23,137 bases of DNA from Candidatus Heimdallarchaeota archaeon. GTDB lineage: Archaea > Asgardarchaeota > Heimdallarchaeia > JABLTI01. Shown here piece by piece: positions 15,323 to 21,461 of the stretch. The first letter of the stretch is position 1. The number at the start of each line of letters is the position of its first letter. Both the position numbers and the translations under genes were made by a program. Below the pieces are notes generated by a model that was given only the letters and a program-made list of their open reading frames with translations, had not been told where the DNA came from and made no database searches. Location: NCBI GenBank assembly GCA_030614005.1, contig JAUWKS010000052.1:1-23137 (forward strand). The letters run 5' to 3'.

Positions 15323-17167
15323 GTGTCTAATGAAAAAGAACAAAATAATGAAGAAATTTTCGAGGACAATCATTTAGGTGAAGATACAAAAGAGCAATCC
15401 CAAGATGAACATCCTAATGAAAATGAAACCAAAAATGAAATTTCTTGTTCAAATTGTGGAACACTAAATCCGAAGTCAAATCTTTTTTGTAAAAACTGCG
15501 GATCTCCTTTTGTTCAGAAGGTTATTTGCCAACAGTGCAGTTCAGAAATGCCTGTTTATAATTCCTTTTGTTCAAAATGTGGTGGAATCCTAAAACAAAA
15601 TATACCACAAATTCAACAGACACCAGGTACAACACACATACCTCCTCATCCAAGCCAACAACAGATTTTTGATCCACAAAGATACTATGTGTCACCTCCT
15701 TCACCAGGAGAAATGAATGCCCAAGAACAAATACGGTTAGCACGTTATCAAACCTTTAACATAGTAGGTTCAGTTGCAGGATTTCTAATGATTTTTGCGG
15801 GAATTGTTGGTTTGATTGTCTTTATAATAGTGATGGCTTTCTCACCATCTGTTATAAATGAAATATTACTACCAGAAGATAGAGCCTATTATTATGGATC
15901 ACTGGTTGCGATGTTTATCCCTTTGATAATCGGTGTAACAATAGCAGGTATATCGTTGATAATTTATCGGCCTGAAGGAAATGCTTGGAAAGGATTTTAT
16001 TATACTTTGAGGTATCTATTCGTTGGATTTTCAGCTGTTTTAGCTATTTTAATCGTACTCAGTATTGGTTCATGGATATTTTATAACCCCTCAACACCTA
16101 TAAGTGGTTCAATACCATTTTGGTTGTTTGTAATGATTGAAATACCAATTGTTAACTTTCCATTGGTTGCTTTAGTTGTAATAATAATAATGGTATTTCT
16201 ACTTGGTGTTGTTTCTATGGTTATTCCAACATTGATAAGAATAATCAAAAAATATCAAAAAAACAATCAAATTTCAGAAGAAATATCTTTTGATGATAAT
16301 TCAGGCATAGAACCGATTGTTCTCGAATTAGATAAGGAGAAGAAAATTACTGAAGAATCTGATGTTAAATTATCTTTATTAGAAACGAGAAAAGGAGTTT
16401 TGCCAAGTATATTTTATCTTCTAAAAAACAATCCAATAATTGGTTCAATTGAACTATTAGGTGCTTCCTATTTAGTATCAATAATTCTAATTCTTATAAT
16501 GACTCCTTTTATCAATCAAAATACTTCAGGTGGGTCAACACCGGTTGAAGCACCAGATCCTTTTATTACTCTGTTCTCATTGGCTTGGGCAGGTGTTTTT
16601 GAGGAAATTAGTTTCCGTTTGCTAATTATTGGAATACCAATGATTTTCGTTATGCTTACTCGATATTTAATGCAACAACAAAAAAGTAGTATAGAAACTA
16701 TGGAACGAATACCTGCTGACCGAATGAAGGTATTAGATGATACTGAAAAAATAAAGGATTGGCAAATTCTATTTGCAATTAGAGGCAAATATAAGAAAAT
16801 TAGTTACCCAGAATGGACACTTATAATCATTTCATCGACTTTATTTGGATTTGCACATTGGGAGAAATGGACTGGTAGTTGGGGAGCTTGGAAGATCGTT
16901 CAAGCAGGAGTTGCAGGTCTATTTCTAAGTTATGCTTTTGTAAAATACGGTATTGAATCGGCAATATTTATTCATGTAAGCAATAATGTTCTTATTGGTT
17001 TAGCTGTTTTTTCAGGAACAGTAGGTGCTAATTGGATAGCAGGTATCTCAAGCTTTCTTGTTTCTTGTTTGTTTGCTGTTGGTATATTTAAAATCATTAG
17101 TTTTGTAATAAACTTCGCTCTGACATTATACTTTAGGAAAGGTGATAAAAAGAGCCTAAGTTATTAG
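15323..17167 (+). CDS. Double-zinc-ribbon plus CPBP (Abi / type II CAAX-like) intramembrane glutamic protease (GTG start)
   Basis: CSNC/CKNC and CQQC/CSKC ribbons, Pro/Gln linker, several TMs, then CPBP motifs FEEISFR, FGFAH, AIFIHVSNN. Confidence 0.85.
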   Translation: MSNEKEQNNEEIFEDNHLGEDTKEQSQDEHPNENETKNEISCSNCGTLNPKSNLFCKNCGSPFVQKVICQQCSSEMPVYNSFCSKCGGILKQNIPQIQQTPGTTHIPPHPSQQQIFDPQRYYVSPPSPGEMNAQEQIRLARYQTFNIVGSVAGFLMIFAGIVGLIVFIIVMAFSPSVINEILLPEDRAYYYGSLVAMFIPLIIGVTIAGISLIIYRPEGNAWKGFYYTLRYLFVGFSAVLAILIVLSIGSWIFYNPSTPISGSIPFWLFVMIEIPIVNFPLVALVVIIIMVFLLGVVSMVIPTLIRIIKKYQKNNQISEEISFDDNSGIEPIVLELDKEKKITEESDVKLSLLETRKGVLPSIFYLLKNNPIIGSIELLGASYLVSIILILIMTPFINQNTSGGSTPVEAPDPFITLFSLAWAGVFEEISFRLLIIGIPMIFVMLTRYLMQQQKSSIETMERIPADRMKVLDDTEKIKDWQILFAIRGKYKKISYPEWTLIIISSTLFGFAHWEKWTGSWGAWKIVQAGVAGLFLSYAFVKYGIESAIFIHVSNNVLIGLAVFSGTVGANWIAGISSFLVSCLFAVGIFKIISFVINFALTLYFRKGDKKSLSY

Positions 17168-17207: not shown

Positions 17208-17711
17208 TTGAATAAATTATCCACTGAACCTCAAAAAGAAAAATATGCTCATATAATTGGCATCGGAAATTTAACACGCTTAGATGATGGAGTTGCAATA
17301 CGAATAATCGAGCAACTAAGGAAAAAGAATATCCCATCCAATGTGAAGGTTACCGATCTTGGTACTGGAGGAATTGATATTATTTTAGCTTTAGATGGTT
17401 GGGAGAAGGGGATAATTATTGATGCTGTAGATTTGGATTATTTACATCCAGGAGCAATTGTTGAATATCGTGTTAAGGACGAGAATATACCAGAAATTAA
17501 AGGGCTAAGTTCAACTCATGGGTTTGATGCTGTAACTGCACTAAAATTAGCTTTCTCTTTACAAGAATATGATTTACCATCTGAGATACGAATAATTGGC
17601 ATACAAGTTAAAAACCTAGAAGGATTAGGAACAGATTTATCTTCAGAGGTTGAATCTGCAATACCCAAAGTAATTCAGCGAATATCAGAATTATTACAAA
17701 TTAAATTTTAG
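17208..17711 (+). CDS. Hydrogenase maturation protease (HyaD/HycI family, peptidase A31) (TTG start)
   Basis: IIGIGNLTRLDDGVA, DLGTGG, IIIDAV, STHGF, IIGIQ...GTDLSSEV. Confidence 0.88.
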   Translation: MNKLSTEPQKEKYAHIIGIGNLTRLDDGVAIRIIEQLRKKNIPSNVKVTDLGTGGIDIILALDGWEKGIIIDAVDLDYLHPGAIVEYRVKDENIPEIKGLSSTHGFDAVTALKLAFSLQEYDLPSEIRIIGIQVKNLEGLGTDLSSEVESAIPKVIQRISELLQIKF

Positions 17712-17730: not shown

Positions 17731-18252
17731 TTATTTTGGAATTTTATCAAAGGATAAACGAGCGATTTCGTTGAAAACGAGGTTTACTCCTAAACCATTT
17801 GAAGCAGAGGTTTCAACATAGCGTATTGCATTGTATTGTTTTATTGTTTCTGCAATTACATCTTCATCAAGGAGTTGGTCTCTGGGGAGATCGCTTTTTC
17901 CGCCAACTAGAATAATGGATGTGTTAGAATTTTTATCAACAAAACCATACCATGTTTCTAATCCTTTGACAGAAAGTGCTCTTGTTAAATCGAACATTAA
18001 AATAGCTACTAGTGCTCCTCGAAAATAATTATCGAAAATACCCATCTGTTTGAATTGTTCTTGACCACCGCAATCCCATACCGAAAGTGAAATCTCTCTT
18101 TCTTGGTAGCTCATTTGGTGAATATGAAACCCAACACCGATGGTAAGCTTTGTCGTATCAATAAACTCACCTGTAAGGTATCTTTGAATAAGGGTTGTTT
18201 TTCCAACTCCTCCATCGCCACCAAAAACGACTTTTGCTATGATTTTGCTCAA
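17731..18252 (-). CDS. Rab-like small GTPase (TTG start)
   Basis: G1 GDGGVGKT, G2/RabF1 TIGVGF, G3 WDCGGQEQF, RabF4 YFRGA, RabF5 LMFDLT, G4 variant GGKSD, G5 ETSAS. Confidence 0.9.
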   Translation of the reverse strand: MSKIIAKVVFGGDGGVGKTTLIQRYLTGEFIDTTKLTIGVGFHIHQMSYQEREISLSVWDCGGQEQFKQMGIFDNYFRGALVAILMFDLTRALSVKGLETWYGFVDKNSNTSIILVGGKSDLPRDQLLDEDVIAETIKQYNAIRYVETSASNGLGVNLVFNEIARLSFDKIPK

Positions 18253-18413
18253 GAATCTTCCACCAAATAACTGCTTTTCTAGATTGTAATAATTTTATTG
18301 TGATTTCTTAAAATATAAAGCTATTCGTTTAAGCATTTTATTTTTACCATAAATAAAAGATTGAAACAAGTACCGATAAAAATGAAAAGAGAAGAAAAAA
18401 TCAGCTAAAGAAC

Positions 18414-19217
18414 TTAGTGGATTTTTTCTATTGAAACATTCAATCTATCAAGTATTTTTGACATTTCGGCAATTTCAGTAACGGAGATAACTTTTAGTTT
18501 ATTTCTAAATACACTTGAGTTTAGCTCAGAAGCACTCTTGTATATTTGTCTTCTACGCCATACAGTAGGATCAGGGTGATAGAAGAGAATGGAAAGAGTA
18601 CTTTTGTTTTTATCGGCAACTAAGAAAACATCACCGGCTGGAATCTTTTTACCAATTAATTCTTTAGGTTGTCCATCTTCTAAGAGAGTGAATATTCTTG
18701 GAAGTTTTCCTGAAAAGAGCATGCCCATTTTCTTTGAAAGATCTTGGAGGTTGGCAAATGTTAAATCTTTTTCAGAAGTGATATCTCGAACAATAACTGA
18801 GAAATAGGGTTTAATAAGACCGTAAGCATCAAGAATCTCTCGAGTATAATCTTCTTTAAAGAGTAAAAAGAGAATACACTTTCTTCCATATTCTAAAATT
18901 CTATCATCAGTTGACGCTTCTGCTTCGACATCAAAAGTAATTGCCACTGCACGTAAACTAGGTTCACCCGGAACTGGGAGAGGACCAAATGATTTTTTGT
19001 CATCCATAGTATCAAACATTTGCTTTTTCTTCTCTTCCATAGTCTTTCCTGAGGAACCTTCATCAAGACCTACAATTGTCATACCTTCTACTGCTAATGT
19101 GAGTGTTTGTTCATCAGTTAGTGGAGTATCATTGTATGGGACCGCAGGGCCTGTATCCTCAAAGGTCACAAAAACAATTCCAAGCAAATGCTCCTTTTGT
19201 GATTCAAATCCAATCAT
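18414..19217 (-). CDS. Putative uDENN/longin-like domain fused to a C-terminal gelsolin-like domain
   Basis: aa 11-168: GIVFVTFEDTGP resembles the uDENN/NPRL2-type 'F....GP' opening, and the predicted order is bb-a-bbb-aa. aa 173-260: RIF...GDVFLVAD...WRRRQI...ASEL...KVISVTE...ILDRL follows gelsolin-repeat spacing. Alignment by eye only. Confidence 0.55.
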   Translation of the reverse strand: MIGFESQKEHLLGIVFVTFEDTGPAVPYNDTPLTDEQTLTLAVEGMTIVGLDEGSSGKTMEEKKKQMFDTMDDKKSFGPLPVPGEPSLRAVAITFDVEAEASTDDRILEYGRKCILFLLFKEDYTREILDAYGLIKPYFSVIVRDITSEKDLTFANLQDLSKKMGMLFSGKLPRIFTLLEDGQPKELIGKKIPAGDVFLVADKNKSTLSILFYHPDPTVWRRRQIYKSASELNSSVFRNKLKVISVTEIAEMSKILDRLNVSIEKIH

Positions 19218-19312
19218 TTCAAATTTTCATCCTTTAATTATTAGTTTCTAATCCTTCTTTCTCTCGCTTACTAACACATTATTTTAACATTACTTGTCCT
19301 TAATAAAAATTC

Positions 19313-20293
19313 CTAAACGGATATTATTTCATCAATATTTTTACTTTCTTCAATAAGGTTCTCAATAGCAATTCTTCCTTCTTCGCCTTCTGTGAGGAAA
19401 ATATCCAAAACCATTTCAGCTATTTGTTTTGCTTTTCCAATAGCTCCACCACGTTCCACAAAAAGACAACAAATCTTTTGGTTTCTGGAGACAAGAACCA
19501 TCGAATAATCCCCGACAGTCACAACATCCAAGAAACTGGAATCTTTAAAGAGTGTTCGGGTCATTGAATTTAACGCAGAGAGCAAACCAGTGATAAGAAC
19601 AGCATCTTGAGTATCATCCATAATATTAGAGAATTGAGCATCAAAATCAAGCAAACCATTAACGTCATAAATAAGCACTCTATGAATAGTGACATATTCA
19701 TGATAACCGTCGTAGTGCATAAGTTTTGAAATAAACCAATCGAATCCACGATATATGCCTTCTCCAGTCAAAATAGTGCAGATTTCGAAATGAAAGGAAC
19801 GGGGATCAGTGGGAGAGGAAATTTTTGCTAAATCGAAATAACTCAAAACTTTGCTAAGATTAACTTTATTTTCTGGGCTTTTTTTATTCACTAAGGTAAG
19901 TAAGGGAACATTAGAAGGTATTTTTTCTATTATTCTATGGAAAGGTTCAACAGATTTTCTAAGAGATTCATCGGATTCTCCGTTTAAAACATAGACAATG
20001 CCATCTGCAATTGAAAGAAAATAATCAATTACCTTTTCATCGTTTAAAATCTCTTTTCCAATATCGATGAGTTTAAACCACTCTTGACCATAAGAGATGT
20101 CAATCCAATTGAGAACTGTATCAGGAAAGACTTTGTCTCTGTTTGATGAAAGCAGATAATAAAGAGTAGTTGTTTTTCCGGAACCTTGTTCTCCAATAAG
20201 TAGCACCCAAGGAATTTTATGGTTCTCTTTACTCAAGTAGTTGATAAAGGATTCAATTGCTTTTTTTGGTGCTTTCATATTTAGAACATCCAT
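19313..20293 (-). CDS. Degenerate Arf-like GTPase domain fused to a C-terminal longin-like domain
   Basis: G1 GEQGSGKTT intact; G3 IDIGKE, G4 NKKS and G5 CTI degenerate; Arf-type TGEGIYRGFDWF. C-terminal IHRVLIYD-GLL...DAVLITGLLSAL...LDVVTVGDY longin pattern. Confidence 0.75.
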   Translation of the reverse strand: MDVLNMKAPKKAIESFINYLSKENHKIPWVLLIGEQGSGKTTTLYYLLSSNRDKVFPDTVLNWIDISYGQEWFKLIDIGKEILNDEKVIDYFLSIADGIVYVLNGESDESLRKSVEPFHRIIEKIPSNVPLLTLVNKKSPENKVNLSKVLSYFDLAKISSPTDPRSFHFEICTILTGEGIYRGFDWFISKLMHYDGYHEYVTIHRVLIYDVNGLLDFDAQFSNIMDDTQDAVLITGLLSALNSMTRTLFKDSSFLDVVTVGDYSMVLVSRNQKICCLFVERGGAIGKAKQIAEMVLDIFLTEGEEGRIAIENLIEESKNIDEIISV

Positions 20294-20436
20294 TTTCTAC
20301 TTTGCCTTGTCAGTCAGTTAGTAAAGCAAATTTTGTTTTCATATTGATAAAATGTAGTTCCAAATAAATGCTTATCGGTATATCTCCTAACATAGGAATA
20401 TGCTTAAAATTAAAAGAAGAAAATAAAAAAGAGGTA

Positions 20437-21396
20437 CTAAATAGAATCCAATGGGAAATAATTAGAGATAACTTCTTGAAGTGAAATACTTAAACCTTTA
20501 AGATATTGCATTTCAATTGCTTCAAAAATTCTGCTGGAAATAGTTAAAACTCTACTGACAGGATCATTAACGTCGATCAACATGCCCATAACAAAGAGCT
20601 TATTTTTGGTAATCACAAGTTGATAATCTTTCATAATCTCAAGAACAGTGACAGCTTCGTCATAATCTCTCATTTGCTTAGCGAATCGTTCAGTTTCTCT
20701 AATAGATTCACGATAGGCTGTAGCAACATTTGCTTGTTGCGTAGGACTGCCAAAAATACATTGATCTAATTCTTTGCCATTAGAATCAAAGGCAACAGCT
20801 GAAAATATTTTAACATGCCAAGTGGGAATAGCTTGATCTTTGGTACCAATATCAACTAACCAATCCCAAGCAGGAAACAAACCTTCACCTGTAAGAGCAG
20901 AACAACGAAACATGTTAAATGGACGATCAAGACGAATCATTTGTTGAAGATCTAAAGCTTCCATAACTTCTACAGAAGTAGCAGCATCCTCTTTGTCAGA
21001 CTTATTAGCTAAGAAAAGAACAGGTGCATTAGGATCAGTGTTTTCTAAAGTCTCATAGAAAACCTCTTTGGCTAAATTAAATCTTTTTTGATCAGCAGCA
21101 TCAACAACAAAAACAATCGTTTGAGCTTTAGTAACAAACTTCTTCCAAAGGGTCTTGCGAATCGGAGCGTGCCCACCTAAATCCCATACGACAAACTCTA
21201 GTGTTCTATATCTATATACTTCAATATTTACTCCGAATGTTGGTTTTGACAGAGTGTATTCTGATCTTAGTATTCTTCTCACTATTGTTGTTTTTCCTGC
21301 TGCATCTAAGCCTATTATTGCTACATGTTGTTTTGATGATGCATCATCACCTGTTTTTTTCTTGTCGGCGCTGATCAATCTTCGAAGGAAACTCAC
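20437..21396 (-). CDS. Arf/Sar1-like small GTPase fused to a C-terminal longin-like domain (GTG start)
   Basis: N-terminal amphipathic MSFLRRLIS, GLDAAGKTT, PTFGVNIE, WDLGGH, LWKKF, FVVDAAD..RF, NKSD, CSALTGEGL...DWL. About 125-aa C-terminal bb-a-bbb-aa domain. GGAG upstream. Confidence 0.88.
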   Translation of the reverse strand: MSFLRRLISADKKKTGDDASSKQHVAIIGLDAAGKTTIVRRILRSEYTLSKPTFGVNIEVYRYRTLEFVVWDLGGHAPIRKTLWKKFVTKAQTIVFVVDAADQKRFNLAKEVFYETLENTDPNAPVLFLANKSDKEDAATSVEVMEALDLQQMIRLDRPFNMFRCSALTGEGLFPAWDWLVDIGTKDQAIPTWHVKIFSAVAFDSNGKELDQCIFGSPTQQANVATAYRESIRETERFAKQMRDYDEAVTVLEIMKDYQLVITKNKLFVMGMLIDVNDPVSRVLTISSRIFEAIEMQYLKGLSISLQEVISNYFPLDSI

Positions 21397-21437
21397 TCTT
21401 TTTTTATCTCCAGTTTTTTCTATGCTGTCTTTCTTAT

Positions 21438-21461
21438 TATCTTTAATACCTATCTTTAATA
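21438..21461. repeat. Tandem 11-bp direct repeat TATCTTTAATA x2 (13-bp period) upstream of the GTPase cluster
   Basis: Copies at 21438-21448 and 21451-21461, separated by CC, read directly. Confidence 0.6.

Follow-up and report, generated by a model that had tools for sequence, protein, structure and literature searches.

A heimdallarchaeial Arf-family GTPase with histidine at the catalytic position, a predicted longin-order tail and a degenerate paralogue as its neighbour

Membrane budding in eukaryotes is initiated by Arf GTPases, and models of the origin of endomembranes give a central place to the Asgard relatives of these proteins. Published work characterizes only small, single-domain Asgard Arfs of the glutamine type, the ArfR or AArf proteins. 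These proteins bind to membranes GTP-dependently via an unlipidated N-terminal helix (10.1101/2024.02.28.582541; PMC11914678), which is the established norm for Asgard Arfs, and ArfRs with extra domains were set aside in a published study (10.1101/2024.02.28.582541). GTPase–longin and GTPase–roadblock fusions and an operon-encoded Rag-like pair have also been published (PMC10933270). The pair, a GTPase–roadblock pair in MK-D1, is predicted to dimerize like Gtr1/Gtr2 (PMC10933270, Tran et al.), and longin and roadblock pairs generally dimerize as GTPase platforms (PMC3747258). Here, a 23,137-nucleotide stretch of Candidatus Heimdallarchaeota archaeon DNA (GenBank assembly GCA_030614005.1, contig JAUWKS010000052.1; the window) was analysed. 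The window corresponds to contig 49 in an assembly of 3.6 Mb with a G+C content of ∼33%. One of its genes, gene A (P0001), encodes an Arf-family GTPase that carries histidine at the position of the Arf catalytic glutamine and is followed in cis by a tail with the predicted element order of a longin domain. Gene A is the first gene of a conserved cassette with a degenerate paralogue (gene B; P0002) and a third gene (gene C; P0003). It is somewhat probable that gene A is an ArfR/AArf-kind GTPase that forms, with gene B, a Rag-like dimer in which it is the active, membrane-binding partner, and that it acquired its histidine by a recurrent replacement.

The 319-residue open reading frame (ORF) of gene A opens with GTG, the earliest start codon downstream of the preceding in-frame stop, and a GGAG sequence is read 10–13 nucleotides upstream of it. 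The N-terminus is well defined because ∼40 orthologues share this start position and open with (M/L/V)SFLRRLIS. Residue 2 is serine and hence no Gly2 is present. The other motifs named in a preliminary description of this DNA (GLDAAGKTT, PTFGVNIE and WDLGGH) are likewise all found in the ORF, and the His76 codon, CAC (21171..21169), is read directly from the sequence. The sequence CSALT comprises residues 165–169, and switch II contains one residue more than in eukaryotic Arfs. A total of 131 homologues were obtained at E ≤ 1e-5, and nearly all of the named ones belong to ‘Candidatus Heimdallarchaeota’ or ‘Asgard group’. The homologues and the Pfam Arf and PDB matches argue that gene A is not a chance ORF.

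The G domain of gene A is of the Arf type. Pfam Arf (PF00025; curated cut-off of 22.3 bits) matches gene A at 145.8 bits, followed by Roc (49.5 bits), SRPRB (48.2 bits) and Ras (39.2 bits). A PDB sequence search returned Arl1, Arf1 and Arl8 at E values of about 1e-30 and the Asgard protein HodArfR1 (8OUL) at 1.8e-27, with a HMMER alignment that starts at residue 2. The AlphaFold2 (AF2) model (predicted local distance difference test (pLDDT) value of 82.6 and predicted template modelling value (pTM) of 0.80) represents a single conformer that resembles GTP-bound Arfs. Foldseek aligned the model with GTP-bound Arf6, Arf1 and Arl1 (32–37% identity and a root-mean-square deviation (rmsd) of about 2) and with GerdArfR1 and HodArfR1 (33–34% identity; rmsd of 1.8–2.2, and 1.8 for GTP-bound HodArfR1). 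In VIA-align, Arf6 scored a Z value of 23.2 (34% identity), Sar1 22.8 (29% identity) and SRβ structures 17.2–19.2 (16–24% identity). Gene A falls in an Arf-type clade that is separated with support of 100/100 from four Ras-like paralogues of the same genome. The preliminary assignment of an Arf-like GTPase is thus borne out.

Affiliation with the Rag GTPases was weighed against this assignment. Gene A and gene B could be archaeal orthologues of the Rag/Gtr nutrient-signalling heterodimers that are mis-scored as Arf. A G domain with an in-cis C-terminal α/β dimerization domain and the adjacency of two paralogues, one of them divergent, would fit such an origin, and a solved Asgard RagA-like GTPase (8YL2) aligns with model residues 22–273 at a Z value of 18.5. 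However, the identity to 8YL2 is 13%, compared with 33–36% to Arfs, and the tail is modelled in longin order rather than in roadblock order behind a G domain with a predicted Arf-type N-terminal helix. Moreover, a genome scan with Pfam Gtr1_RagA (PF04670; E ≤ 0.01) found 26 places, gene A not among them, and four of these are strong Rag-like genes elsewhere in the genome (up to 116 bits) that match the profile better. Gene A is firmly placed in the Arf family and not among the Rag GTPases because the Arf profile and structure matches lead and the Gtr1_RagA scan misses it. An orthologous relationship with Rag/Gtr is the least credible of the explanations considered here and is given almost no weight.

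The catalytic glutamine in the WDxGGQ motif of typical Arf, Arl and ArfR proteins is replaced in gene A by His76. This residue does not exclude membership in the Arf family because Sar1 also carries histidine. WDLGGH is conserved in all orthologues of gene A with at least 66% identity (∼37 cluster representatives), and among the 32 tabulated small-GTPase ORFs of its genome gene A is the sole carrier of histidine. A survey of the wider family in 82 genomes of the class revealed a mixed distribution. In the source family (f1), an orthologue was found in 11 of 11 genomes at 75–95% identity together with a paralogue at 42–49%. The paralogue group mostly reads YDLGGQ but includes a nested pair or subgroup with YDLGGH, which occurs in the same synteny as the glutamine-bearing orthologues (ABC transporter, GTPase and AsnC). 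A second family (f3) contains a single gene A homologue in 27 of 30 genomes (37–40% identity) that reads FDLGGH, and a third (f6) contains one in 20 of 22 genomes (35–39% identity) that reads DLGGQ. Fusion relatives of the Hodarchaeales type carry glutamine in G3.

His76 is a recurrent, lineage-specific and convergent Gln-to-His replacement, and it does not attest to an ancestry shared with Sar1 or SRβ. The replacement is regarded as recurrent and lineage-specific because glutamine and histidine alternate among close relatives, the character requires at least four changes on both trees, and approximately unbiased (AU) tests reject clades of histidine-bearing sequences. A clade of all histidine-bearing rows was rejected at a p-AU value of 0.025, and a clade of the gene A orthologues with a Sar1-like sequence was rejected at 0.0008. 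In the careful tree, which was rooted on the Ras-like paralogues and whose root depends on the outgroup, the 40 sampled eukaryotic rows, among them the Sar1-like one, all fall into a single group (support of 98/75). A short archaeal ArfR adjoins this group, and the gene A family (99/91) lies outside it. Consistently, the Sar1-like sequence (P0095) ranked only 31st of 55 eukaryotic hits in a BLAST search, at 92.8 bits compared with 121–125 bits for the top eukaryotic Arf-family hits.

These results bear on the proposal in the preliminary description that gene A is a mosaic near the Arf/Sar1/SRβ split, in which case its histidine would have been inherited from an ancestor shared with Sar1 and SRβ. 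The histidine at the catalytic position and the unlipidated N-terminal helix are indeed features of Sar1, the structural similarity to Sar1 ties with that to Arf6, and deep Arf-family relationships are unresolved even in a dedicated study. Nevertheless, the two residues alternate within the family and even within one syntenic set of orthologues, the joint clade with the Sar1-like sequence is rejected, the eukaryotic rows group away from the gene A family, and the SRPRB profile trails the Arf profile by a wide span of bits. The mosaic origin is therefore unsupported by trees that contain one Sar1-like row and no SRβ, and it is considered highly improbable. The convergent change that the same description offered as an alternative fits the data. 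Membership in the Sar1 subfamily was rejected on the BLAST rank and the p-AU value with the single Sar1-like reference, and membership in the SRβ subfamily on the lower Pfam score and a Z value below that of Arf6.

The N-terminal segment of gene A precedes a Lys-rich stretch and contains hydrophobic residues at positions 3, 4, 7 and 8 (F3, L4, L7 and I8). The same hydrophobic/basic pattern is observed throughout the fusion family (e.g. MSLFRRL, MFLRRLL and TVLRKLF). Experimentally validated helices of Asgard Arfs are equally short (residues 2–13 in HodArfR1 and 2–11 in GerdArfR1) and lack a functional Gly2 (10.1101/2024.02.28.582541), and Heim12F4_9-5 binds liposomes without myristoylation (PMC11914678). 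Judged from sequence conservation, a membrane-binding helix is a plausible feature of gene A.

Residues 197–313 of the C-terminal tail were modelled at pLDDT values above 90 and are arranged in the order β-β-α-β-β-β-α-α (β, 197–204; β, 209–214; α, 218–241; β, 248–254; β, 258–264; β, 268–275; α, 280–299; α, 306–313). Longin domains are defined by this order, and roadblock domains by α-β-β-α-β-β-β-α (PMC3747258); the modelled tail follows the former order and not the latter. The term longin accordingly denotes a fold-order assignment made on a predicted structure, not membership in a family. The tail gave no Pfam or PDB match when searched as a single sequence, as members or as a profile, and these searches connected it to no eukaryotic longin by sequence. 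When a profile of the tail was run against 1.84 billion proteins, no more than 24 cluster representatives were retrieved, and all seven full-length relatives that were scanned (291–336 residues) contain an Arf G domain upstream of the tail. The leads from an ESM Atlas feature search with the tail, to Robl_LC7 and MAPKK1_Int, stayed below the threshold. Whole-model fold searches (pdb, afdb_swissprot, pdb_via_wide and atlas) returned G-domain matches only and barely probed the tail. For gene B, faint matches of Intu_longin_2 and Robl_LC7 (E ≥ 0.06) were observed in its own tail only. The fused longin that had been noted in the preliminary description is thus present behind the G domain as a domain modelled in longin order, and the accompanying idea that it may be a ‘Rosetta stone’ for Arf–longin partnerships is a reasonable conjecture.

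Gene B combines a tail homologous to that of gene A with a G domain that has lost its catalytic motifs. The two tails align over 107 columns in hhalign (probability of 94.7%; E value of 5.6e-8). In the G domain of gene B, the P-loop is intact, but G3 reads D-[LI]-G-K-[ED] and has lost both the second glycine and the Gln/His residue. In addition, the aspartate of the G4 NKxD motif is not conserved, and G5 reads C-[TSN]-I. In family f3, G3 of gene B is wholly lost, and NKMD and SAK are retained. Gene B resembles what a non-catalytic partner would look like because its motifs decay differently in each lineage while the reading frame and the tail persist.

The gene order A-B-C is conserved in two heimdallarchaeial families, f1 and f3. 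It was seen directly on six contigs, the window and five others, and the gaps between the genes in f3 are only 3 and 12 nucleotides. Gene A and gene C lie ∼2 kb apart on the same contig in 10 of 10 f1 genomes and 24 of 27 f3 genomes (34 of 37 in total). In the three f3 exceptions, the contig is short or gene A lies at one of its ends. In f1, the cassette is followed by a Ras-type gene, as seen in the window and on contigs L002 and L003; in f3, it is not.

By analogy with known systems, gene A would pair with gene B via the two longin-like tails to give a dimer of the Rag/Gtr kind, in which gene A would hydrolyse the nucleotide and bind the membrane. GTP loading would release the N-terminal helix of gene A onto the membrane, as for other Asgard Arfs, and His76 would orient the attacking water, as the histidine does in Sar1. 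Hydrolysis by gene A probably needs a partner in trans, for which genes B and C are the obvious candidates.

Several points weigh against parts of this reading. First, the binding of gene A to gene B is putative and deduced from gene order and the homologous tails, and sequence searches place the tail in no longin or roadblock family. Second, the AF2 helix at residues 3–10 has low pLDDT values and is only ∼10 residues long, and the hydrophobic moment (μH) of residues 2–13 (0.50) is within literature ranges but not above shuffles for so short a segment; of the ‘non-myristoylated amphipathic N-terminus’ proposed previously, the absence of Gly2 and the conserved helix-forming pattern hold. Third, the trees took in one Sar1-like row and no SRβ, Rag or ArfL references. 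Fourth, the gaps in the window are 143, 95 and 161 nucleotides, and they do not attest to co-transcription here. Finally, close paralogues of gene A that possess the same tail occur singly, with no gene B beside them. The tail could therefore equally support homodimers, and as histidine also occurs in stand-alone paralogues, it is not tied to the cassette.

The last two points lead to an alternative in which gene A works without gene B. Its tail would homodimerize or serve as an in-cis platform or autoregulator, and gene B would be an independent, diverged neighbour. Hodarchaeales-type relatives with the same tail also stand alone, homodimers are predicted for several GTPase–longin proteins of MK-D1 (PMC10933270), and intergenic gaps of the size observed here (95–161 nucleotides) leave room for separate promoters. 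In opposition to this alternative, two families whose A proteins share just 37–40% identity maintain the A-B-C order, with near-abutting genes in f3, the A and B tails show homology, and gene B has kept its reading frame open and its tail highly conserved despite its lost catalytic motifs, as is typical of an obligate non-catalytic partner. Independent action of gene A is a tentative explanation of lesser but appreciable probability. A complex prediction for the gene A tail (residues 188–319) with the gene B tail (residues 194–326) gave no answer (score of 0.01) and counts neither way, and no RNA runs matching positions 17731–21450 were listed among public runs.

The family of gene C is represented in 78 of the 82 class genomes, with several copies per genome. 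Gene C has no match in Pfam or the PDB, and its AF2 model (pLDDT value of 41) is uninterpretable. A Pfam Gelsolin scan of the genome (E ≤ 10) matched other loci and not gene C, and hhalign of the gene C family with the gelsolin protein of the genome gave a probability of 1%. Near the N-terminus, between the first two predicted strands, the family contains an invariant F-x-D-x-GP motif (VFVTFEDTGPAVPY). A ‘GP motif’ has been reported for folliculin, SMCR8 and NPRL2-type GTPase-activating protein (GAP) longins and for heimdallarchaeial longins (PMC12290439). Two Pfam-Folliculin proteins of the same genome, C57:263-1540(+) and C74:33058-34341(-), read FVRFDDRIGPCCIY and LIRFDDKFGPGCLY, respectively, at the same place. 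However, hhalign produced only a 21-column local match between gene C and Folliculin-type proteins (probability of 11%), Pfam Folliculin did not match gene C, and no relation between gene C and the A and B tails was found by hhalign. A GAP-type longin is a possible identity of gene C, to be taken as a lead from the resemblance of the motifs. One of the Folliculin-type genes adjoins another GTPase–tail fusion gene on contig C74.

A broader scheme can be drawn in which the A-B-C cassette is an ‘Arf-type Rag’, namely a heterodimer of an active, membrane-binding His-type Arf and a pseudo-GTPase that is formed via in-cis longins and served by gene C as a GP-motif longin GAP similar to folliculin and SMCR8. 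A fused dimeric ancestor would then have lost its tail to yield the ArfRs and the eukaryotic Arfs. Such a descent could be envisaged because, in the outgroup-rooted tree, the Arf-type clade has the GTPase–longin fusions at its base. If true, the scheme would give the Arf, Rag and longin-GAP systems connected origins. The scheme is speculative, and its correctness is considered unlikely.

Table 1. Positions of gene A, its motifs and domains, and the genes of the cassette in the window
Feature	Coordinates	Strand	Basis
Gene A, Arf-family GTPase with C-terminal longin-order domain	20437..21396	-	Translation; Pfam Arf 145.8 bits; orthologues at 66–95% identity
N-terminal short helix, residues 2–11 (SFLRRLISAD), then Lys-rich linker; no Gly2	21364..21393	-	AF2 (low pLDDT) and family conservation
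Arf-type G domain, residues 21–185	20842..21336	-	Pfam Arf covers 21–182; Foldseek, VIA-align
G1 P-loop GLDAAGKTT, residues 29–37	21286..21312	-	Translation, alignment
Switch I/G2 PTFGVNIE, residues 52–59	21220..21243	-	T53 and G55 invariant in family
G3 WDLGGH, residues 71–76	21169..21186	-	His76 at position of Arf catalytic Gln
G4 NKSD, residues 131–134	20995..21006	-	N131, K132 and D134 invariant
C-terminal longin-order domain (predicted), residues 197–319	20440..20808	-	AF2 pLDDT mostly >90; relatives always behind Arf G domain
Gene B, 326 residues, degenerate G domain and homologous tail, putative dimer partner	19313..20293	-	Pfam Arf 55 bits
Gene C, conserved protein of 267 residues, fold unassigned	18414..19217	-	No Pfam/PDB match
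Fourth gene, Ras/Rab-like small GTPase of 173 residues	17731..18252	-	Pfam Ras 124 bits

The cassette in the window is flanked by genes for a HycI hydrogenase-maturation protease (17208-17711 (+)) and a ∼600-residue zinc-ribbon protein (15323-17167 (+)). Both genes also flank the cassette on contig L002, and the synteny is therefore wider than the GTPase genes. Contig L009 (2838-4909 (+)), of the Hodarchaeales type, contains two tandem GTPase–tail genes of 303 and 302 residues with strong Pfam Arf matches. The 302-residue gene (P0063) reads DLGGQ, and the tandem may represent the undecayed state of an A/B pair. DNA nearly identical to positions 17731–21450 occurs in marine-sediment and cold-seep metagenome runs of at least two studies, with at least half of the sampled words present.

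The source genome displays a large expansion of small GTPases, with 44 places that match Pfam Arf (e.g. C35:59291-60220(-), C74:35024-35533(+), C112:16252-16722(+), C31:29383-29877(-) and C4:90843-91343(-)). Approximately 16 of the 32 tabulated small-GTPase ORFs extend at least 100 residues past the G domain, a sign that fused architectures may be numerous. Gtr1_RagA-type genes are found on contigs C101, C9 and C4. At C9:70311-70922(+), a short Arf-type GTPase with the likely start MGILSKLFKKF would possess Gly2 and an Arf1-like N-terminus; the source archaeon is not expected to myristoylate proteins.

In the literature consulted, no description was found of a His-type Arf subfamily, of an Arf-type G domain that combines a membrane helix with a longin-order tail in cis, or of a conserved cassette of A, pseudo-GTPase B and C. 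Searches on the Lokiarchaeota RagA-like tetramer (8YL2) and on ArfR–longin heterodimers yielded nothing beyond the papers cited here. The subfamily adds an Arf G domain that carries a predicted membrane helix and is joined in one protein to a longin-like platform, and a conserved partnership with a pseudo-GTPase paralogue and gene C. A histidine-type site that alternates with glutamine among close relatives provides a natural system for the effect of histidine versus glutamine on intrinsic and stimulated hydrolysis. If the dimer model is true, a Rag-like architecture and Arf-like membrane switching are combined in one archaeal machine. If it is false, gene A is one more lineage-specific member of the large Asgard GTPase expansion.

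Among known systems, the Asgard ArfR/AArf proteins (HodArfR1, GerdArfR1 and Heim12F4_9-5; 8OUK, 8OUL and 8OUM) resemble gene A in their Arf-type G domain and heimdallarchaeial origin and have the short unlipidated helix that is predicted for gene A. Experiments have demonstrated that their membrane binding depends on GTP and on the helix. The studied proteins are single-domain GTPases of 160–220 residues with a catalytic glutamine. In contrast, gene A has His76, the extra switch II residue, a longin-order tail of 130 residues and a cassette with a degenerate paralogue, and its family lies outside the smallest tree group that joins the short ArfRs and the eukaryotic Arfs. Sar1 shares with gene A the DLGGH sequence in G3 and a closely similar G-domain structure (Z value of 22.8; 29% identity), and it has the unlipidated N-terminal helix that is predicted for gene A. 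Unlike gene A, Sar1 lacks both a fused domain and a pseudo-GTPase partner, and it is not the nearest relative of gene A by sequence or tree. No Sec23-type or gelsolin-type partner was detected beside gene A in the Pfam genome scan or by hhalign.

The Rag/Gtr proteins and the MK-D1 operon pair (PMC10933270) share with the A/B pair the succession of a G domain and an in-cis α/β domain and the adjacency of paralogues with unequal G domains. Gene A differs from them in its Arf-type G domain, longin-order tail and predicted N-terminal membrane helix, and its dimer with gene B is putative. SRβ has histidine at the catalytic position. It also possesses an N-terminal transmembrane anchor, which gene A does not have, and SRPRB is only a secondary Pfam match of gene A. 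In the SRβ–SRα(SRX), FLCN–FNIP, GATOR1 and C9orf72–SMCR8 complexes, as in gene A, an Arf-family or Rag GTPase is placed on a longin platform. Compared with SRβ and the longin-GAP complexes, gene A is distinguished by a longin-like domain that is fused to the GTPase in cis.

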